From: Ginglymostoma cirratum
Taxonomy: Eukaryota
DNA length: 64,000 bases
Direction: 5' to 3'
Assembly: GCA_024137785.1 (NCBI GenBank)
Contig: JAHRHZ010000144.1
Coordinates: 19,650,317 to 19,714,316 of the forward strand
In this document: positions 25,716 to 62,075 of the stretch, piece by piece
How positions within the stretch are numbered: the first letter of the stretch is position 1
How the letters are laid out: each line of letters starts with the position of its first letter
Made by a program: the position numbers and the translations under genes
The notes under the pieces: generated by a model
What the model was told of the DNA's origin: nothing
Seen by the model: the letters and a program-made list of their open reading frames with translations, nothing else
The model's database searches: none

Positions 25716-25789
25716 TTTCGGTTAGCTTAGCTGGTTGGAGTGTGGTGCTAATAATGCTAAGGTCATGGGTTCAATCCCCATACTGACCA
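25716..25789 (+). pseudogene. tRNA-Ile(AAT) pseudogene
   Basis: Colinear over 74 nt with vertebrate tRNA-Ile-AAT (cggttagc.tag.tggtt.gag.gtggtgct-aat-aa.gc.aaggtc..gggttc.atcccc.tac...cca); many differences are CpG transitions; acceptor stem broken. Confidence 0.82.
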
Positions 25790-25861: not shown

Positions 25862-26184
25862 TGGGGCAGCACAGTGGCACAATGGCTAGCACTGTTGCCT
25901 CAGAGCACTAGGGACCTTGGTTTGATTCCATCCTCAGGTGACTGTTTGTGTGGAGTTTGTACATTCTCCCTGTGTCTGCGTGGGTTTCCTCTGGGTGCTC
26001 CAGTTTCCTCCCACAGTGCAAAGACGTGCAGGCTAGGTAGACTGGCCATGCTAAATTGTCCATAGTGTTCAGGAATGAGTAGATTAGGTGGGTCATAGAG
26101 GGATGGGTCTGGGTGGGATGGTCTGAGGGTCAGTGTGGATTTGTTGGGCCGAAGGGCCTGTTTCCACACTGTAGGGATTCTATG
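25862..26184 (+). mobile_element. HE1-type SINE
   Basis: Full head, central domain and tail ending gtagggattctatga. Confidence 0.92.
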
Positions 26185-26189
26185 AATAG

Positions 26190-26375
26190 ACAACTTTGTT
26201 ATTAAATGAGGATTGTTGATTGCCAGAAAAACTCATCTGGTTTGCCAATGCCCTTTAGAGAAGGAAACTGCCATCTTTACCAGGGCTGGCCTACATGTGA
26301 CTCCAAACCCACGTCAATGTGATAGACTTTTAACTGCCCTCTGTACAACTAGGGATGGACAAAAAATGCACTCAT
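26190..26375 (+). mobile_element. tRNA-head SINE, second family, 3' part
   Basis: gaaggaaactgccatctttaccagggctggcctacatgtgactcca core. Confidence 0.7.
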
Positions 26376-28000: not shown

Positions 28001-28052
28001 AACCCTAACACTAACCCTAAGCCTAACCATAGCCCTAACCCTAATCCTAGCC
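28001..28052. repeat. Degenerate (CCCTAA)n telomere-like tract
   Basis: aaccctaacactaaccctaagcctaaccatagccctaaccctaatcctagcc. Confidence 0.8.
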
Positions 28053-44074: not shown

Positions 44075-44658
44075 CAGAGATAGTAGGAACTGCAGATGCT
44101 GGAGAATCTGAGGTAACAAGGTGTAGAGCTGGATGAACACAAAGCAGGCCAAGCAGCATCAGAGGAGCAGGAAGGCTGACGTTTCGGGCCTAGACCCTTC
44201 TTCTTCTGAANNNNNNNNNNNNNNNNNNNNNNNNNNNNNNNNNNNNNNNNNNNNNNNNNNNNNNNNNNNNNNNNNNNNNNNNNNNNNNNNNNNNNNNNNN
44301 NNNNNNNNNNNNNNNNNNNNNNNNNNNNNNNNNNNNNNNNNNNNNNNNNNNNNNNNNNNNNNNNNNNNNNNNNNNNNNNNNNNNNNNNNNNNNNNNNNNN
44401 NNNNNNNNNNNNNNNNNNNNNNNNNNNNNNNNNNNNNNNNNNNNNNNNNNNNNNNNNNNNNNNNNNNNNNNNNNNNNNNNNNNNNNNNNNNNNNNNNNNN
44501 NNNNNNNNNNNNNNNNNNNNNNNNNNNNNNNNNNNNNNNNNNNNNNNNNNNNNNNNNNNNNNNNNNNNNNNNNNNNNNNNNNNNNNNNNNNNNNNNNNNN
44601 NNNNNNNNNNCCTCTGATGCTGCTTGGCCTGCTGTGTTCATCCAGCTCTACATCTTGC
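44075..44658. mobile_element. Palindromic Penelope-derived mini-element (family B) spanning an assembly gap
   Basis: Left arm and inverted right arm flank the N run; flanks gagctaagaactgatt / gagctcagaattgaat (13/16 match). Confidence 0.78.
44211..44610. other. Assembly gap (400 N)
   Basis: Run of n. Confidence 1.
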
Positions 44659-48445: not shown

Positions 48446-48564
48446 AGGAGTTGAGGTGAATAGAATTGATATATTTAAAGGGAAATAAGATCAATAAATG
48501 AGGGAAAAGGGAATGGAAAGTTATCCCAATAGAGTAAAACGAAGAGGGTGAGAGGGGTATTAGA

Positions 48565-50305
48565 ATAAACGTGACTACAGAGGAATGAGGGAGGAGCTGG
48601 GCAGAATTGACTGGAAGAGGAGCCTAGCAGGAAAGACAGTGGAACAGCAGTGGCAGGAGTTTCTGGGAGTAATTCAAGAGATGCAGCAAAAATTCATCCC
48701 TAGAAAAAAGAAGCATGGTACAGGGAGGATGAGGCAACCATGGCTGACTAAGGAAGTCAGGGATAGCATAAAAGCAAAAGAGAAAGCATATAATGTGATG
48801 AAGGGCAGTGGGAAACCAGAGGATTGGGAAGCTTACAAAGGCCAACAGAGGGCAACAAAGCAAGAAATAAGGAGGGAGAAGATTAAATATGAGGGTAAGC
48901 TGGCCACTAATATAAATGAAGACTGTAAAAGTTTCTTTAGATATATAAAGGGCAAAAGAGAGGCAAAAATGGACATTGGACCACTGGAAAATGATGGTGG
49001 AGAGATAGTAGTGGGGATCAAGGAAATGGCTGAGGAACTGAATAATTACTTCACATCAGTCTTCACAGTGGAAGACACGAGTAATATACCAAAAATTAAA
49101 GAGAGTCAGGAGGCAGAGCTGAGTATGGTGGCCATCACCAAGGAAAAGGTGCTAGTAAAACTGAATGGCCTGAAGGTGGACAAATCACCTGGACCAGATG
49201 GTCTACACCCCAGAATTCTAAAGGAGATAGCTGAAGAGACAGTGGAAGCGCTAGTGGTGATCTTTCAGGAATCGCTAGAGTCAGGATCTCAGAGGGCTGG
49301 AAAATCACTAACATAACACTCCTGTTTGAAAAGGGAGTAAAGAAAAAGACGGAAAATTACAGTCCAATTAGCCTAACCTCGGTTGTGGGTAAGATTTTGG
49401 AGTCCATTGTAAAGGATGAGATTTCTGAGTTCTTGGAAGTGTATGGTAAAATAGGGCAAAGTCAGCATGCTTTCATCAGGGGAGGTCATGCCTGACAAAT
49501 CTGCTAGAATTCTTTGAGGAAGTAACGAGCAGGTTAGACAAGGAGAGCCAATGGATGTTATCTACCTGAACTTCAAGAAGGCCTTTGACAAGATGCTGCA
49601 CAGGAGGCTGCTGAGTAAGATAAAGGCCCATGGTGTTAGAGGCAAGGTGCTAGCATGGATAGGAGATTGGCTGTCTGGCAGAAAGCAGATAGTGGGGATA
49701 AAAGGGTCTTTCTCAGGATGGCAGCCGGTGACAAGTGGTGTTCCACAAGGGTCAGTGCTGGGACCAAACCTTTTACTTTATACATTAATGATCTCGATGA
49801 TGGAACTGTGGGCATTCTGGCTAACTGTGCAGACGATACAAAGATAGGTAGAGGGACAGGTAGTATTGAGGAGGTGGCGGGGCTGCAGAAGGATTTGGAC
49901 AGGTTAAGAGAATGGGCAAAAAAGTGGCAGATGGAGTAAAACGTGGGAAAGTGTGAGGTCATGCACTTTGGTAAGAAGAATAAAAGCATGGGCTATTTTC
50001 TAAATGGGGAGAAAATTCAGAAGTCTGAAGTGCAAAGAGACTTGGGAGTTCTCGTCCAGGATTCTCTCAAGGTAAACTTGCAGGTTGAGTCAGTAGTCAG
50101 GAAGGCAAATGCAATGTTCGCATTTATTTTGAGACAACTTGAATATAAAAGCAGGGATGTACTACTGAGGCGTTATAAGGCTCTGGTCCGGCCACATTTG
50201 GAGTAGTATGCGCACATTTGGGGCCCATATCTCAGGAAGGATGTATTGGCCCTGGAACAGGCTTGGAGGAGGTTCACGAGAATGGTCCCAAGAATGGAAA
50301 GCTTA
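48565..50305 (+). mobile_element. CR1 ORF2 (RT) fragment, relatively young, truncated at both ends
   Basis: 243-aa open stretch (PWLT, ELNNYFTSVFT, KSPGPDGLHPRILKE), then YLNFKKAFD, SGVPQGSVLGP, YINDL, ADDTK, LVRPHLE. Confidence 0.96.
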
Positions 50306-52174
50306 ATTAAAGCTTAACTATTCAAATGTTCTGTTCTTTACCTTAGTGAAAATATACCTGGAATAAACAACTACTGACTGCCATGATGTGGAAGTGCTGG
50401 TGTTGGACTGGGGTGGACAAGGGCAGAAATCACATGACAGCAGGTTATAGTCCGGCAGGTTTATTTGCAAACACAAGCATTTGGAGGAGCAATCTATCTT
50501 CAGGTGTTGGTCAGAGAGGTAGTATTAGAAACAGAATTTATAAGTAAAAGATCAAATGCTCACACCATTGATGAGGATGTACTAAACAAACCTAAGATGC
50601 TGTTAAATCTTTAATCAGTTAGAAGATTTTAATTGATTAATACGTATATGTAATTCCTCAAATTCCTTTCAAGTCACAGTCCTAGGAGAACTGAAGTTTT
50701 TATCAGTGTAAAGAAGAGCTGATATTTTAGGTCAGGCAACGCATGTTAGGTGTGATACCTTGTTTAGAATCTGTTTGTATTTTAGTTTGGAGTCAGACTG
50801 ATTTTATTTCTGAAGTATTTTTTGAAATTTATAAAATGCCATGTTAACTGACTGTCTATAAATTGTGTGCTTTATGAACAGCCTCGGTGCTCAATACCAC
50901 CAACTGCCAGTTTCCAGGCGCCATCCTACAACTCATCCGTTTCATCCTCGACCACAGCATCTTCATCTTCAACAACCAGCTCTTCATCCTGACACTGAGA
51001 TCAGCCATGGGGACCAAAATTTCTCCCCATATGCCAACATTTTCATATACTGGTTTGAACGAGACTTCTTTGCTGCACGGAGTCTCCATCCAACGCTATA
51101 CACCAGATACATTGAAGACATTTTCTTCCAATGGACTCATGGTGAAGAATCACTGAGACACCGACATAGCAATATCAAAAAGTTTCATCCCACAATCAGA
51201 CTTACTAAGAATCAGTCTCATTCTTGGACACACATATCTCCACCAGGGACAGACACCTCAGTACCTCACTCTACCTACGGATAACTTCATGATGCTGCAC
51301 TTAGGCTTCCACCCTAAATATATTAAAACAGCCATCCCCTACGGACAAGCCCTATGCATACGCAGAATCTGTTTGGATGAGGAGGAATGAGATGGATACC
51401 TGAAGGCATTGAAGGATGCCCTCATAGCAACAGGACACGACACTCAACTCATTGATCGCCAGTTCCAAAGTGCCACAGCGAAAAACCGAAATGACCTCCT
51501 CAGAAGACAAACACGGGATACATCCGATAGGGTACCCTTCATCATCCAGTATTTCACAGGAGCAGAGAAACTACTCCATGTTCTTCACAGCCATCAACGC
51601 ATTGTCGATAATGATGAGCACCTCGCCAAAATCTTTCCCACGCCTCCACTTGTCACTTTCAAATAACCGTCAAACCTTAAACAGACCATTGTTCACAGCA
51701 AACTACCCAGCCATCAGGACAACATCGATCCCAACACTATACAACCCTGTCATGGTAACCTCTACAAGAAACGTTTGATCTTCAACACAGATGCTACCAT
51801 CACACGTGGGAACACCACCCATCACGTACACAGCAGATACTTGGCCAACGTTGTCCATCTCATACGCTGCAGGCAAGGATGTCCCGAGGCATGATATATT
51901 GGCAAAACTTGCAGACGCTACAACAATGGATGAATGGACACCATGCAACAATCACCAGACAGCAATGTTCCCTCCCAGTGGGGGAGCACCTCAACGGTCA
52001 AAGATATTCAGCCTTGGATCTTCAAGTAAACGTTCTCCAAGGCATACTTTGGGATACACTACAACGCAGAGTCGCTGAACAGAAGCTGATAGCCAAGTTC
52101 TGTACCTGTGAGGACGGTCTCAACTGGGATCTTGGATTCATGTCGCACTACAGTGACCCCACCACACTATACAT

Positions 52175-52381
52175 TCTCACACTCACACACACTCACACAC
52201 ACATGTGCATTCTCTCTTTCCCCCCTTCCACTCACACACACACGCGCTCTCTCTCTCTCCCGTTCCACTCANNNNNNNNNNCTCTCTCTCTCCCGTTCCA
52301 CTCAGACACACACGCGCTCTCTCTCTCCCCCCTTGCACTCTCACACATTCTCTCTCCTGCGCCCCCTTAATCGCTCTCTCT

Positions 52382-52428: not shown

Positions 52429-52835
52429 ATCCATGGGGTGAATTTGTATTAACAGACACATTTTATGTTGTTCAAAAAGCACACAATTTATAGTCAGTCA
52501 GTCAATATGGCATTTAATAAAATTCCTACTGTACAAATACAACCAGTCTGACTCCAAACTAAAATACAAACAGATTTTAAACAAGGTCTCACGCCTAACA
52601 TGCATTGTCTGACCTATAATGTCACCTCTTCTTTACACTGATAAAACCTTTCGTTCCCTCATGACCATGACTTGAAAGGAATTCGGGGATTTACATGTAC
52701 ATAGTAATCAACTAAAATCTTCTAACTGATTAAAGATTTAACAGCATCTTAGGTTTGTTTGGTACATCCTCATCAACGGTGTGAACCTTTGATCTTTTAC
52801 TTATAAATTCTGTGTCTGATGCCATCTCTCTCACT

Positions 52836-52874
52836 AACACCTGAAGAAGGACTGAGGCTCCGAAAGTTTGTGTT
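52836..52874 (+). ncRNA. Minimal hammerhead ribozyme motif in Penelope terminal repeat
   Basis: AACAC-CUGAAGA-A-GGAC-UGAG-GCUCC-GAAAGUUU-GUGUU; 5-bp stem I, slightly damaged stems II and III. Confidence 0.68.
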
Positions 52875-54536
52875 TTCAAATAAACCCGTTGGACTGTAAC
52901 CTGGTGTCGTGCATGTACTGACTGAATTGAGCTGTGTGGTGGGGAAGGCGGTCTCAAGATGTCCTTTCTGCAGGACATGATTGAACAGGACATTCCCTGA
53001 TGAACATTAGAACATGTTCAACAGAATCTGTTGCTATTGTCTGTGAATATCTCTTTTTAATAGAATGGTTGCGACAGTCTTTATATGTTAAGGTTGCTAT
53101 CTAATTTATATTTTAATAATTACACAAGGCTTTTCTAAAATGCTGACATGGGATGAAATGTAGACTGACACCATTTAACATCCTTATGCAGCAGTAATTT
53201 AATATGATGTGACACATGGCTGTTTAGTACTGCAGAGGTGTGGAATCTCATTTGTGGAATAGAAATTAAGCAATTCACAGCAGTACACCATTACAATTTA
53301 GAATAGACTTAGTTCACCTCGTCTGAAAACATTTATGTAAAACTTGAGATTGGAAGGTTTTATTTTGAGGTTATTCTCCTCTTCCTTGTGATTTAATTTT
53401 CAGAAAAAAATTGACAAATAAAATACTGCAGATGCTGTAAATCTGAAACAGAAGCAGAAAGCTTAGGAAATAGTCAGTAGTTCTGGCAGCATCCATGTAG
53501 AGAATAACAAAATTGAAGGAAACTGGAGAAATAAAGACTGTCATCTGACCAGTTCTGAAATCGGTCCTTTAGTTAATAAAGTTCAACAGTGGAAGAGAGA
53601 GAGAGTAAGACTGGGCATGAGAGTGAGTGAGTATGTGTGAGTGAGCAAGTGTGTGCATGCATGTGAGAGTTTGTGAATGTGTGTGTGGAGGGGCGGCAGG
53701 GTAGGGGACACAGTAGTCAGTAGAGGGAAGGTTGTTTTATGAGGAAGAAGGTGCAAGATACATCTGTGAGAATACAGATGAGAGATACAATGAGAACAGA
53801 ATCTGTGATGACTGTAGGCAAATAGTCCAAGAGAAATGTCAGGAAGCTGAAGTTTTATAAACAGTTAGCATTGGTCTCTTTCATTTAAAGTAGACAGCGT
53901 TGGAGTGGGTTTGGGGGAGGTAAGATGATAGCTAATTAATATTTTTACAAGGATACAATGTCCATGGATTCATGTTGCCACTGGGGGAAGTAGTCCATTG
54001 GACTCCACTGTAGACACAGAGTGCAGAATTTCCTGCAACATCCCTGAATCTCATAGACAAGTTATTGTGCAAGGATCTTTGTATGTGAGAGAGAAAGCCG
54101 CGAGAGAGAGACAGTGTCTATTATTCTTCACACAGAATACGAATGGCAACTCGTGCTCAGATTGAAGAGGCCAGGTTTATGAAGGTTTAATTGAGGTTGG
54201 AAGATTTACCTAGCTCTGGCTAGAGGGAGTGATCTCTAGGATAAACCTTGCAATGAAAATTAACTCTCAGCTTAGAAATTATCTGCCATGACAAAGAAGG
54301 AAAGAAAGCCAGTGGAAGATGAGAATAACTTTGGATTAATTCCTGGAGAGTGAAGTGTCCAGTTGAGAGACAGTGAAAAGTATAACTACTGAGCGAGATT
54401 GTTGGTTGTTTTCTAAATTTAATGATGTCTTTGTCTGTCGTTTAAGTATATAGGTTGCCTACTAAATAATGCTTAGACAATGTTGATTTCAATTTGTTTA
54501 TTACAGTAAATGTACTAAAACTTTAAATCTTGTCAA

Positions 54537-55755: not shown

Positions 55756-56448
55756 GGCCAGAGTATCGTGCCCTATTTAGTGGCATGCTGGGAGGCAGCA
55801 AATGCATTTAATAGTGTGGAGGGTGAGCATCCAGCTGCCTTCCTATTTCCATGCCGATTATTTCCAGAGTAGGAAAGCCTGGGGACAACCTTCGCACCCT
55901 GTCACCAATGGGGCAGACAATTACTGATTACTTTACTGAGCTGAAGGTGGCACTACCATCCTGAACAAAGGACAACTGTGCAGCATGATTGTCGTTTCCA
56001 AATGGGGTTAGGTGAGATCCCACCTCCAAATGTCACTTAGTGCCTGATCAAGGGATCCAGCTTTGGGAAAGGAATTGGGAGCCACATCCTGTTCTTTCTT
56101 CTGGCCCTCTAAAACCCCCCCATGTCCCTTTAATGCACAACTGCCATCCTGTGAAAACACTGCTGACATTATTCACCAGTGGCCTGGCACTCTCTGAGAT
56201 CCTGCGTTTCTGATTGGTATCACTCCTCTAAAAGCCACTGCCATCCTGTGGCAATGTTGATTGACAAGTAACTCTTGGTAGGTGGCACTGCCATACATGA
56301 GATCCTGATGTTGGGGACTGGTCCACTGCTGAACTCTCCACTGACCAGCTCACAGTTTAGTGGGTCTCACAGAAAGAGGTAACACAGGTCTCTTGCTAGT
56401 GCGCCAGACTGCAAGTGAGTCCCTCATCACCTCTACCGAGACTCTGCC
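55756..56448. mobile_element. MITE-like DNA element inserted in an old CR1 RT fragment
   Basis: Imperfect TIRs ggccagagtatc / gagactctgcc; CR1 frame DPLLFLIY before it and ITKFVDGPKL...LQEDIDKL after it. Confidence 0.5.
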
Positions 56449-56584
56449 ATTTATCACCTAAATTTGAATGCGCAAAGCACAATTACAAAATTCGTAGATG
56501 GCCCAAAACTTGAAAGTATTGTGTACAGGGGTAGACCTCAAGAGGATATAGACAAGCTCCTCAAATGGAAAGGAATTTGGCAGC

Positions 56585-56977
56585 TGTTAGGTTCCTAAGA
56601 GATAAGGAACAAGCCCGCGATCTTTTCAAGTATCCGGCTTTATTTTTTCTCATATGTCGATTACATGATTGCCACTTGAGAACTCTGAAGTAACAGCTTT
56701 CTTCATGCCTCGTATATGTCTTTTCTATCTTCCCCCAAAACTGTACCTTCTGTTAATCTATTCCGCTATACCTTCCCAATACATACTCCAATAAGTTCAT
56801 GCAAGCTACTAACCACAAGAGCTAGGCAACAGTTTATTCGTCACTACTCTCACATCTGCTTCGAACCGATCTCCTTAGTCTCGACTGTACCCGCAAGTCA
56901 GATCTTTGCTATAGCGTTTGTAAATCTAACCCTTGTCATGCTGTAGCTTAATCACACAATTTTCAACATACTCTGCA
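56585..56977 (-). mobile_element. 3' LTR of an endogenous retrovirus
   Basis: TG...CA on minus, preceded by PPT aaaggggggaaa (56978-56989); AATAAA on minus at ~56639-56644. Confidence 0.85.
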
Positions 56978-57130
56978 TTTCCCCCCTTTGATTCTTCCCA
57001 AACAGAATCACACAGAGCAAGCAAGCTAACAATAATATGTAGGTCACCTAGAGTGTTGAAGAGCAGTAAAATACTGAACTTTAGACTTCAGCACTTGCTG
57101 AATACAACATTCAAGCAACAAAAACAAGGA

Positions 57131-57192
57131 ATGCAGAATAATACAGACATATGCAGAATAATACAAACATATGCAGAATAATACAGACATAT
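57131..57192. repeat. 20-bp tandem repeat x3
   Basis: atgcagaataatacagacat x3 (one mismatch). Confidence 0.92.
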
Positions 57193-59210
57193 AGAAAAAG
57201 GTATTTACATTGAGTTCACATTTTATGATAAGTCCTTCCCTTTTGGTGCAGGGGATTAACAAGTCACTAGTAATAAACACTCAAAATACAGTTAGTAACA
57301 CAGTCAACGTTCCCATCTGGGGCTATTGTAACAATGCTAGTCAAGCTTCAAGCTCAGTCACCGGTTGCTTCATACATGGACTCAAAATTCCCCAATTCTC
57401 TTCATCTGTATCCATCTTGAGGATTCTTCTTCAATATTTTTCCTTCTTTGCCAATTTGTCATTGAGTGGTAACTACCTCCACATGGAAGATCCCCCCCAG
57501 GGTTGCAATGTACTTGGTATCAAACAATACAGTTCAAACAAATCATAGTGCGTTCATCAGGCTTTACCTTCAGCTTGTGCTTCCCCGTTTTTTTTCAAGC
57601 TATCATTTTTAGGCCCTTTCACTTCAGCTCGCTATCACTGTTTTAAAATCAGTCTCTCTATGGATTGTGTGTCAGCATTTTATAGTTTGATCTATACTTT
57701 TGTGCACTTCCAAGCTACACTAATCTATTCGTCTGAGGCCCATTCTTCAGTGCAACTTTTTAACCAAACATTCCCTCATGTTTGTTACTTCCGAAGTAAC
57801 AATCTCTTTTGCACACTTACATCGGTATCCCAAGATCACTTCACACATTCATGACTCTCGTATGATCTTATCAAAAGATCTATGAGATTTTACTTATCTC
57901 TCCACTTATAGTCCCAATGCCTCAGGCAGTGGCTCAAAGATGAAATTCAATTCTCTTGAAAGGAAAGACAAGGATACAAACATCACCAAGAGAAAGCTAT
58001 CAGTATAGTGCTCGCACTTACTTCCTTTGCACTGAAACGCATGTTAACTTCAAGTGCTGATTCAACACATTAGTCTAAATGGTTTTTCTTCTGCCAATAC
58101 TCTTCATCCCTAATTACTTCACCTCATCTATTTTGCAATTTAACTATTACCACCTATCAAATTCCAGAGATCTGGGGAGATTTGTAGTCCATGGCAAAAC
58201 ATCTTACAATATTTTATAATACGAGACAAACATTTTTGTTTGATTCGGGCAAAACACACTTTGTTCATTCTTTCTCTAAGATGACGCACATTTTTTAAAG
58301 TTACTTCATAACTCATTCTAGATATTTGATATATCTCAATGCAAATTTGTCCAAATTCACAATTCTGTTTACTCCCACAAAGGGAGTAAATTCCTAATAC
58401 CCAATAGCTTTCATGTCTTTCACAATAGTTCTCCAATGCTGAGATGTGTTGTTAATGATTGGCTTGATGGGTTGAGGAAGCCTCATCCATCACTGAGTTT
58501 CAACACTGAAAGTCTGTAGACAGGTTCAGAAGTAAAACCTTCAACATCTTTCAATCACCGAAAAACAAGAAAAAGACATCCATTCTACTTCAAGCAGAAT
58601 GAGTTGATTAGTAGTGGCTTGAGGGGGGGTGCTGACAACGTTTCAACATAATTACATCAATCATTTGTCTTCCTCCTGTACAGAAATAAGTGTGTTATAA
58701 TCGACCAAGGAAAACCCCACCTCCTTTGTTAGATTTTACTTTTTTTAAAAAAGCTCCTTGATATCAGTTTCATCAGAATTTTGTTCAAAGATTCCAATTT
58801 CCAAAATTCCAATTTTCCTTGTACTTGGACATTTTCACACCAAAATACAGTTACAATGAGCAAATCTTCTCATCCAGAATTAAAGAGTCACTCATGCATT
58901 AAAACAGTATTTGGAAGTTCACTCTGGCCAGAAAATGAAATTCCAAACATGACAGTTTCCCATTCCAAGGAGTAAACTTTTAACAAACTTCATGACCTAA
59001 TTTTTAAATCAACATTTCTTCACAGATTTTTGCTTTACACAATCACTTATAGTTCCTTGGAAGGACATTACATTAACCAAACGTGTTCCATACTGATTTA
59101 GGCACACATCACACTTTCAAACCACCATAAATTCCCAAAATTCAAACTAAATTCAAAGCATTCCCAGATCTCGAGCTCCAGGAAATGAAAACACAAGCGT
59201 TACACAATAT

Positions 59211-59819
59211 TTAACAACCAACAAACAAAGCTGCATTCAAACCATACCACAAAGAGTTAACACTTAGTTCAGGAACGCAGCACCGAAAGCTCGTGTCTCT
59301 CTCTCTCTCTCTCTCTCTGTTTCTTTTTCCTTCGCAGCATTCCATTTGACCCCAGGTCTTTCTAAGTCTCTTGGACCATGTGTCTATCATCTTTGGCAGC
59401 ACAGGATCCTGTCTGTACCAGTTGGCCCATTCATATTTATAGTCAATCTTCCCCCCTTTTTCAGTTTTTTGCTGGGACCAGATTTTGCATTGCTTGGTCC
59501 ATAAAGGGGCTAAAATGGGCTCTTCATTGTCAATGGAGTCAGGGGAGGGTTCAGCTCTCTTTCTCTTCCATATTTTACTTTCCGATTGGCTTAGTGAGGG
59601 GTAGAGTGGTAGTCTACCGGTCCCCAGCACAGTAAGGTTAGGAGGGGTTGGTTGGGGGTTTGGGTTCTTATGTTGAGAGGTTTCCTCCCATTCTTCCTTG
59701 CTCTTTTTGGTGCATTTGAAATTCTCACAGACAGCTTTTAATTGGCTTTTCAGCTCTGTTTTTCTTGTGTCATGACTTGATTTCTGTATTATCTCATTCC
59801 ATTGTTGGATCTGTCCCAT
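59211..59819 (-). CDS. Open 202-aa frame; first ~150 aa are a diverged paralog of the upstream retroviral Gag N-terminal region
   Basis: EIIQK...QLKAVCENFKCTK and KYEWANW...P..P.MIDTWSKRL match upstream EIIER...QLKAVCEELKSTK and KYECTQW...P..P.LMKRWSKEL; LYPSL late-domain-like motif; expression unknown. Confidence 0.6.
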   Translation of the reverse strand: MGQIQQWNEIIQKSSHDTRKTELKSQLKAVCENFKCTKKSKEEWEETSQHKNPNPQPTPPNLTVLGTGRLPLYPSLSQSESKIWKRKRAEPSPDSIDNEEPILAPLWTKQCKIWSQQKTEKGGKIDYKYEWANWYRQDPVLPKMIDTWSKRLRKTWGQMECCEGKRNRERERERDTSFRCCVPELSVNSLWYGLNAALFVGC

Positions 59820-59834
59820 TAGTATGAGGGAGTA

Positions 59835-60283
59835 CCTTGCTCACTTTAGTCGCTTAATAAAAAGCAAAATGCCAGCAACAGAGGCTGGAGTATTGGGGTA
59901 TTGTTTAATGCGCAGCAGGGCAACTCCAGTAAAAGCAACTGGTATCATCTGCAACAGGCCACAATAGTTCTTGTCCTTTGCCCAAATTGGATGATCTTGC
60001 CATTCCTCCTTTTTCAGATATCATATTGACCACGTTACATGACTATTCTCAGAATGCAATGACGAGTTTATCTGGGTTAAAACATCCATGCCCAATAAAG
60101 GCTGTTGCACAGGTCCAAATCATACAGATGCCATAATTTCATGTGGTCCTAATCATACTGGCAATGGTTTTGTTTTCTTAAGAGTTAATCCCTTTCGATC
60201 TACCCAGACTACAATCCTCCGCTCACCAAAGGACAGATTATGTCCGTCAATCAAAGGTAAACATGTCAATTCAGCACCAATTT
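59835..60283 (-). pseudogene. pol: Retroviral protease and RT N-terminus remnant
   Basis: IGAELTCLP (DTGA region, Asp lost), PLLGMDVL, then HPIWAKDKNYCGLLQMIPVAFTG...IKQYP...AGI. Confidence 0.8.
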
Positions 60284-61484
60284 CCGAGGGACAATATATC
60301 CAGGAGTCCCTTCTAATGTTCAGGGGACATGCCCTTGATGCGTTCAAATAATGCCAGTTGAGTTGCCGAGTCCGAGACGGGTAAGATTCGTGTCTCGGAC
60401 CAGACTTAGGACCACCTGCAGCCTTCTTCTTCGCCCTACAGGTCTTTGCCCCCAGTGTCATTCTTGCCAACAGTTGTGACATTTACCCAGGCATCTATCT
60501 GCCGAGAGTCCCTGCGTTGTCATTATGGTCTGCATGGTTCTAAGTTTACATTCCATATTCCGTTCCAAGCAGTTAGCCTCTTCGAAGATTTCACCATATA
60601 ATTTGCAACTGGTCTCCCAATTGAGGACCGTAACCTTTAACATTTTTGCTAGTTCTGGTTTTAATCCTGTGTCAAGGGCAGATTTCAGGAGTGTTAGATT
60701 ACTACTGTCAATTTCGTCTGTGTTTGTGCCCACTGCCAGGCCAGAATGTTCCATTCAGATCACCACAAGCCTTTCTGCACAGACCCGTAATTCCTCGTTG
60801 CCTTTTTTTGGCGTCCCGAAATCTTAATCCAGTCTGTTTTAGTGGGGCCATAATTCGTCAGCCAATTTCTGACAGCAGCCCCACCTTCATCAATAGGCTG
60901 GCTGTCATCGTCTAATTCTTCTTTAGCCTTCCTAGTCAGTTTCCTTAACGCATTACTTCCTACCATGACAGACAACACCTACACTCCATCCATAGAGCGG
61001 AGACTGTATATATTTTTAAGCATTTCTAATTCAGCCCACATTCTCATGCCCCCCTTTTTCAGGTGAGACAGTTCTTTGGACCATCTTTTCATCAGTGTGG
61101 GATTGGCAGGTGTGTGGGCTGCCCATTGTGTGCATTCATATTTTTCTACACCCTTCTCGTCCTTTGTTTTTTCCTCCTTATGGCTCCTGATCTGTACTGG
61201 CCGTAAATTAAATGGCTGATCCTCTCCTTCAGACTCATTTGAGCTGAAACCATACTGTTTGTCTCCCTTTCACACTTTACTCAGGTCTTGTGATATCCCA
61301 CAGGCAATAAATAGAGGAGTGCCCGGATATGGCAGGGGTGGAAAGTTTTTCATTACAGGAACTTTCTCCTTCTCAGTCAATTCTTGTTTTGTCGATTTAA
61401 GTTCTTCGCAAACAGCTTTCAGTTGTTCCTACAAATTATTAACTTCCTGGTTACGGTTAGTTCTTTCTATGATCTCTTGTCGCT
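60284..61484 (-). pseudogene. gag: Retroviral gag pseudogene
   Basis: PPLPY late-domain-like motif; MHR-like TDWIKISGRQKK.NE...ERL; GLKPEL; single zinc knuckle CHNCWQE*HW(fs)AKTC; several stops and frameshifts. Confidence 0.85.
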
Positions 61485-61529
61485 AGCTAATTTGTTGCAT
61501 TACACATACAGACCAGTGAAAGCATTCTT

Positions 61530-62075
61530 TGTCATTCAATCATGGAAGCCTAATGGTTGAAAATTCACTTTTGGCTTTCAAAAGAGAATTGGATAGATGA
61601 AGTGAAAAATTGCTGAGAAAGTGGGACTAGGCAAGCCCTTATTGCAGAGGGCCAGCATGGACTTGTGGGCCCAATGGCCTCATTCTGTGTTTGTTCTCTT
61701 TAGCAAAATAGGTCAAGAGGAGATTTGACAGATGTGTTCAAAATTATGAGCAGTTTGGACAAAATAGAAACGGTCTTTATTGGCAGAAAGATTGAAATTT
61801 TGAGAGAACCAATTTTAAGGTGAAGTGTAAAAAACACTAAAAAAATGTCATGATAAAGGAATTTTCATGCAGTACATGGTTATTATGTTAAAAGCACTGT
61901 CTGGAAGACTAGCGGAGGATGATTCACTTGTTGCTTTCAAAACAGAATTGGATAGTTGAAGTGAAAAATTGCTGGCAGCAGGAAACGATGGTGAAGTGGG
62001 ACTAGGTGAGTGGTTCTTGCAGAGAGCTCGCATGGTTCTATGGGCCCAATGGCTCCATTCTGTGCTGCAACCATA
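61530..62075 (+). mobile_element. Two tandem CR1 3' ends
   Basis: gctttcaaaa.agaattggatag.tgaagtgaaaaattgctg...gggcccaatggc at ~61575 and ~61933. Confidence 0.75.

Follow-up and report, generated by a model that had tools for sequence, protein, structure and literature searches.

Non-canonical chains account for 1959 of 3173 HERV chains, and Harlequin is attributed to co-packaging (PMC4724089), while recKoRV, a KoRV-PhER recombinant in which a young retrovirus is joined to an old retroelement, remobilises (PMC6112702). These elements are described as mosaics of two retroelements in which coding capacity is destroyed and the halves differ in apparent age, a description that also suits the dead, decayed endogenous retrovirus (ERV) on the minus strand of the 64,000-nucleotide stretch of Ginglymostoma cirratum DNA analysed here (the window), which is most likely a mosaic as well. 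Unlike recKoRV and Harlequin, this element, known here from one locus, carries a gag start from both partners and thus two paralogous gag N-termini in tandem, hereafter gag1 and gag2. The part running from gag2 to the LTR resembles gag-only non-autonomous ERV families whose Gag has an N-terminal coiled coil, namely BHIKHARI-1/2 (Bik-1/2) of zebrafish and ENS-1/ERNI of chicken, which are LTR elements devoid of pol (PMC12067270; PMC3958431). However, the Gags described for those families are 490-617 aa long and contain the whole capsid domain, whereas gag2 retains about 160 Gag residues, and the likeness is one of layout. At the level of concept, gag2 also recalls Ty1 p22, a partial Gag encoded by the element itself and able to block assembly (PMC4599808), but p22 is the C-terminal half of the same gag, whereas gag2 is the N-terminal piece of a separate, diverged gene known from its sequence alone.

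Neither an ERV with a second gag N-terminus in place of pol nor an accessory gene derived from gag duplication was found in the literature covered; that scope did not extend to the bulk of the subscription literature, to Repbase and Dfam entries or to bioRxiv supplements, any of which may describe the family. The available text of a zebrafish ERV survey mentions no double-gag element (PMC8672886), and that of PMC10435555 and PMC3362752 holds nothing relevant to the element. Two candidate parallels were set aside, the catshark ERV-Spuma.0-Sca, which is described with a plain gag-pol-env layout and LTRs of 866-869 bp (PMC10699275), and the ERV-W pre-gag, a different arrangement in which a captured pol piece lies upstream of gag (PMC6995185).

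Layout and affinities of the element

Reading along the minus strand, a broken gag-pro-RT region (61500-59834) is followed within at most 15 nt by the ATG of a 202-codon frame, gag2, and then by a long non-coding body and a single LTR (Table 1). The first-pass annotation had gag1 starting at 61484, but its ATG is at 61500, and the alignment of both Gags begins at residue 1. From that ATG, the first gag1 frame runs for 232 codons with four stops (61485, 61431, 61272 and 60981), and its low-confidence structural model (pLDDT 41) shows a beta-hairpin followed by helices in the part that we infer to be capsid. After a frame change near 60805, the second frame covers 118 codons with two stops (60757 and 60460); its MHR was assigned only by eye, against the text on the MHR of Ovex1 (PMC2717909). 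The protease-RT frame comprises 140 codons with three stops ahead of the terminal one, and since EQG carries on in the adjacent frame, the RT-derived sequence extends to about 59834, in keeping with the earlier placement of the RT break near 59835. Altogether, the upstream part holds 9 in-frame stops in 490 codons in addition to the frame changes, so its description as broken is borne out.

Assignment of these frames to Gag, protease and RT draws on several indications, and the single-strand order gag-pro-pol is consistent with an ERV even where each individual match is weak. ESM Atlas leads for the upstream gag fell in zf-CCHC and Retrotrans_gag clusters (0.84-0.90), the protease's C-terminal portion matched HIV-1 protease weakly (E 0.002), and the RT resemblance was seen by eye. 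The labels proposed at first pass therefore stand on these leads and on gene order, whereas no tool assigned any upstream frame to Gag, protease or RT with significance: Pfam was empty, a PDB sequence search with the capsid C-domain piece returned nothing, and a motif scan found [LIV]D[TS]GA in no frame of the window.

In its affinities, the element recalls SnRV, whose Gag combines an N-terminal coiled coil with an MHR and a single zinc finger, and also SpeV and Ovex1, whose proteases lack the GRD/N motif, the window element reading GMD (PMC2717909). Its predicted N-terminal helix, MHR-like stretch, single broken knuckle and protease lacking GRD/N fit what has been described for SnRV, SpeV and Ovex1. 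Compared by eye with the first block (KQYP...L.EQG) of the reference RTs in Fig. S8 of PMC2717909, the RT fragment ties between MMLV and SnRV, being identical to either one in 10 of 24 columns (EQG is also shared with SnRV). Neither YxDD nor LPQG was found in the element, and the resemblance to retroviral RTs is confined to the N-terminal block; because the RT core is absent, no tree is possible. Lokiretroviruses and BHIKHARI are recognised by a loki RT, an F-like env and the glycine-rich Gag end of Bik-1; gag1 has a CCHC-like knuckle, a Pfam search of the element yielded no env, and no accessory ORF is recognisable. Cartilaginous fishes are not among the lokiretrovirus hosts in the available part of PMC7947760, where the supplement row for Orectolobiformes reads 0/3 genomes; SnRV-like and epsilon-like ERVs have been reported from the elephant shark (PMC4977317).

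Table 1. Features of the element, in the order read on the minus strand, with window coordinates
Feature	Position	Strand	Description
Interspersed repeat, two copies (61543-61689, 61902-62064)	61543..62064	.	74% alike; at the expected place of the leader and 5' LTR
gag1, first frame	60805..61500	-	predicted N-terminal helix (coiled-coil-like), Pro-rich linker, putative capsid N-domain
gag1 PPLPYPGTPL	61312..61341	-	motif scan: YPGTPL is a YPx3L-type motif; no PPxY
gag1, second frame	60449..60802	-	MHR-like stretch, putative capsid C-domain; CCHC-like knuckle, broken, from 60481
Decayed protease	60023..60263	-	stops 60155, 60122, 60023; catalytic DTG motif not recognisable
RT N-terminal fragment	59834..60020	-	WAK..GLL..PV...KQYP...GI...L; stop 59843-59841
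Junction interval	59820..59834	-	last RT-derived bases to gag2 ATG (59819), at most 15 nt
gag2, homologous part, codons 1-160	59340..59819	-	predicted N-terminal helix, Pro-rich linker, start of putative capsid (beta-hairpin, first helix); stop-free
Non-Gag tail, codons 161-202	59211..59339	-	probable frameshift near 59339; (GA)n 59296-59317; stop 59213-59211
Internal AT-rich region	56990..59210	-	2.2 kb, without coding signal
Polypurine tract AAAGGGGGGAAA	56978..56989	-	purine run directly before the LTR
3' LTR	56585..56977	-	393 bp, TG...CA, AATAAA at 56838 and 56644

The region downstream of gag2 has 50, 48 and 55 stops in its three frames, compared with 56.7 +/- 6.3 in shuffled sequence; Pfam gave no match there, and a search with the three frames of 57398-58599 found no relevant PDB sequence match. 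By eye, possible traces of an integrase (H..TH-like, YW, a Cys pair, SPQ.SG) are spread over three minus-strand frames at about 58450-58150, and Pfam and PDB searches gave no confirmation of them, including the HHCC-like pattern near 58450-58360. At 57131-57192, about 150 nt before the purine tract, lie 3.1 copies of a 20-nt unit with 95% matches (TRF), a short tandem repeat in the element's 3' untranslated portion. Purine tracts in such a position serve retroviruses as the polypurine tract (PPT). The LTR proposed at first pass held up: its TG...CA ends, poly(A) signals and preceding purine tract are those of an ERV.

At the other end, gag1 is preceded by 42 nt and then by stacked repeats, among them the pair in Table 1, which we take to be CR1-like. 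Both a 5' LTR and a target-site duplication are missing at the locus, and the window yielded no second copy of the LTR (the next best tile scored 45 against a shuffle maximum of 42), where the paired-LTR search upstream of the element spans just 2.5 kb of largely repetitive sequence. The window as a whole is repeat-rich, CpG-depleted DNA of vertebrate type (CpG o/e 0.26), and its SINE- and CR1-like repeats presumably resemble those of cartilaginous fishes. Several further features of it may be recorded. The longest stop-free frame of the window, with 250 codons (48564-49313, plus strand), had nothing above cutoff in Pfam and reads, we assume, like the region of a CR1 LINE ORF2 ahead of RT. A 385-nt inverted repeat (50433-50817 and 52527-52911, 85% complementary, 1.7 kb apart) has an array rich in CA/CT and a gap of 10 N between its arms, and could represent a pair of repeat copies in opposite orientation or the termini of a DNA transposon. 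A tRNA-Ile(AAT)-like sequence at 25716-25789 (plus strand), shortly upstream of a member of a repeat family (25864-26192), is probably the head of a tRNA-derived SINE, and about eight degenerate AACCCT copies form a telomere-like interstitial repeat at 28001-28049.

Kinship of the two gag N-termini

As the first-pass annotation had claimed, the 202 codons of gag2 form a stop-free frame opening with ATG (59819-59214), which extends to 209 codons from stop to stop (59840-59211) and is the second longest among all stop-to-stop frames of the window. Its homology to the gag1 N-terminus, likewise claimed, is significant: the proteins align with a Smith-Waterman score of 159 and 52 identities in 149 aligned positions, a score reached by 0 of 2000 shuffles (mean 34.5, maximum 61), and tblastn gave E values of 8e-9 and 4e-10 in the two directions. 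At the DNA level, the score of 144 exceeded the best of 300 shuffles, which was 112. All three motifs quoted in support of this homology (QLKAVCE, KYE..W and WSK.L) are present in the alignment, whose identities are spread over the N-terminal helix (19/50), the linker (13/43) and the putative capsid start (20/56).

Every gap between gag1 and gag2 preserves the frame. Over 146 codons, nucleotide identity is 0.495, with values of 0.52, 0.58 and 0.39 at the three codon positions, and NG86 gave a dN of 0.68 and a saturated dS of 4.0, a ratio that is only rough since saturation also defeated LWL85. The two Gags split long ago, as coding sequences under constraint, and these figures do not distinguish selection on a full-length gag2 protein from selection on a truncated one. 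Nucleotide identity this low together with saturated dS indicates a split too deep for a local duplication, which upholds, along with the codon-position pattern, the earlier judgement that the copies are too diverged for a recent tandem duplication. In addition, blastn of 56401-61700 revealed no recent duplicate of either gag. Although the window contains assembly gaps at 44211-44610 (400 N) and 52272-52281 (10 N), it is very improbable that the arrangement is a recent tandem duplication or an assembly artefact, though a misjoin at the junction itself may conceivably have occurred.

Homology between the Gags stops at about codon 160 of gag2, just within the putative capsid. Past this point, three codons match gag1 only in the adjacent frame (score 11, reached by 0.5% of 2195 control positions), making a hidden frameshift near 59339 probable and the last 42 codons something other than Gag; when the rest of gag1 was compared with the region past codon 160, none of nine frame pairs exceeded the shuffle maximum. 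The gag2 model (pLDDT 41.5) has a long predicted helix at residues 2-47, and hydrophobic residues occupy 6/12 and 5/12 of the heptad a/d positions.

The first-pass annotation had further proposed that gag2 carries LYPSL where gag1 has PPLPY and had treated the latter as a PPxY late domain. The motif scan found neither PPxY nor LPxY in gag1. In gag2, LYPSL (residues 72-76, 59606-59592) lies in the Pro-rich linker before the capsid and matches the LYPxnL definition by sequence, but it faces a gap about 18 residues past the position aligned with PPLPY, so a motif swap is unsupported. The (L)YPxnL motif is an Alix-binding late motif, and MLV has LYPAL in addition to PPPY (PMC4848597).

Relatives of these proteins were sought widely. 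A word-index search against proteins of similar length produced no relative of gag2 among 30 candidates, and searches of longer proteins produced none of the gag1 piece among 171 candidates and none of the protease-RT piece among 56. A profile of both Gags searched against 1.84 billion representative proteins gave no usable relative; its sole match, P0001 (2475 aa, 49.8 bits over 12 stretches, best at profile positions 10-48), was judged, from the match table, to be probably a helical-repeat match and was set aside. Pfam recognised none of the 8 frames, and elsewhere it returned only irrelevant matches below cutoff, for 2 of 15 and 2 of 4 proteins. In the ESM Atlas, gag2 showed low recognition and no family. 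Foldseek with the low-confidence AlphaFold models of both Gags gave no match at E <=0.001 and VIA a best Z of 4.5, results that are uninformative either way.

How unusual is the open frame of gag2

Compared with the stops of the upstream part, gag2 has none, as first noted. At the upstream rate of decay, its 160 homologous codons would be expected to hold between 2.9 stops (scaled by length) and 4.4 (scaled by codon vulnerability), for which the probability of finding no stop is 0.053 to 0.013 under a Poisson model and 0.079 to 0.029 in the conditional calculation, the corresponding range for all 202 codons being 0.006 to 0.045. When upstream frameshifts are added, the conditional value for 160 codons falls to 0.025-0.045. 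Simulation gave 0.028 at the central estimate of decay; towards the lower limit of the 95% range of that estimate the value was 0.14, with a higher decay it was 0.011, and the probability rises to 0.38 with TGA stops left out. TGA stops can be products of CpG decay, and CpG o/e is 0.09 in gag2 versus about 0.4 in the upstream part. For a frame that was, moreover, chosen post hoc, the openness is just modestly above chance (P about 0.01-0.14), a suggestive but not decisive result.

An open frame within a decayed element could point to host co-option of gag2 at this locus, in the manner of Fv1 or ERNI, with selection holding the frame open, and Gag co-option is documented in fish and birds (PMC12067270). 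Such an outcome would surprise us, since the tail is frameshifted and filled with repeats, the 5' LTR is absent with no known promoter in its stead, and no homologue appeared in the annotated or predicted proteomes searched.

Rather than being co-opted by the host, gag2 may be a native gene of the ERV family, a tentative reading in which an ancient internal gag duplicate would have lain after pol and been expressed from a subgenomic or spliced RNA, most of pol having been lost from this copy by deletion or by reverse transcription of spliced RNA. The family would then be an undescribed fish retroelement family, in which a membrane-targeting, ALIX-recruiting and capsid-less protein of ~160 residues might conceivably aid budding in trans, or else poison assembly and limit spread. 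The N-terminal helix and the LYPxL motif are kept, which suits this idea, as does the absence of stops where 2.9-4.4 are expected, although that openness is marginal, and the frame probably shifts at codon 161 and ends in a microsatellite tail. Precedents exist in Bik-1, whose membrane binding requires the N-terminal coiled coil (PMC12067270), and in Ty1 p22 as a truncated Gag acting trans-dominantly (PMC4599808). The junction itself falls at the ATG, and its CAAG/GT has the look of an exon-exon join. CAAG/GT is the usual appearance of such joins, but CAAGGT equally represents the Q-G codons of RT, and a second copy was not found. Of the earlier suggestion that a truncated Gag was retained as an accessory or interfering protein, what stands is the open frame, the one support it has, at marginal values (P 0.013-0.08, up to 0.14, and 0.38 without TGA).

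Origin of the junction

With a probability of roughly 55%, we consider the locus to be a mosaic provirus derived from two sister lineages that were joined by template switching between co-packaged RNAs. Its segments belong to two distinct lineages, as indicated by the saturated dS and by the unequal decay of the halves, and the random stop density of the 3' region set against that of the upstream codons implies that the halves have different histories. A recombinant between an autonomous ERV and a related non-autonomous family had been suggested at first pass, and it is the reading that best fits the diverged gags and the non-coding 3' half; the parent elements themselves were not found in the protein searches, so lineage B below is deduced from this single locus.

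Under this mosaic origin, lineage A would have donated gag-pro and the start of RT, and lineage B would be a non-autonomous element consisting of a truncated gag, a long non-coding body, the PPT and the LTR. The RNAs of A and B would have been co-packaged, a step that we infer from the known cases of recKoRV and of non-canonical HERVs such as Harlequin. While copying B, starting at its 3' end, reverse transcriptase would have jumped to A near the gag start codon of B, beside the structured leader. Retroviral leaders are hot spots of template switching. Lineage A was possibly a defective provirus already, which would account for the stops carried by its part. The recombinant would then have integrated and decayed, and later repeat insertions may have hidden or removed its 5' end. 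As for gag2, it probably once served lineage B as an ordinary gag of full length and was then cut a little way into the capsid, a truncation that would make particle building impossible. The openness of its codons 1-160 would reflect a younger B, or chance, rather than a demonstrated functional cause.

Two points count against the mosaic origin. A breakpoint at most 15 nt from the gag2 ATG would be expected from a random switch, by our own estimate, a few per cent of the time, and the gag2 frame has stayed somewhat more open than it would under equal decay. Together, these keep alive the reading of gag2 as a native accessory gag. Both gag start codons are embedded in a TAATG stop-start overlap (61502-61498 and 59821-59817), a coincidence that may be due to chance (1 in 16); the 60 nt in front of either ATG are unrelated to one another (an equally high score came from 33.8% of 2000 shuffles).

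It is unlikely, in our view, that the junction arose by accident, through a younger gag2 element that inserted in or beside an older gag1 element and a deletion that took its 5' LTR, PBS and leader together with the remainder of the older pol. Such a history would explain the age difference directly, and stacked repeats are dense in the region, but it needs two related elements side by side in the same orientation and a deletion ending, again, within 15 nt of the ATG. Moreover, the sequence around and past the LTR yielded no motif of RT, protease or integrase, and the remainder of pol was not found in the window, which counts against a plain nested insertion.

As a mosaic, the locus would be a neat vertebrate case of ERV decay through recombination with a non-autonomous relative, and would point to a pair of retroelement lineages for whose Gag no relative was detected in 1.84 billion representative proteins, a result useful to paleovirologists and unsurprising. 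If instead the junction recurs and gag2 proves to be under selection, it would represent a retroviral accessory gene born of gag duplication, a vertebrate counterpart to the copy-number control of Ty1.
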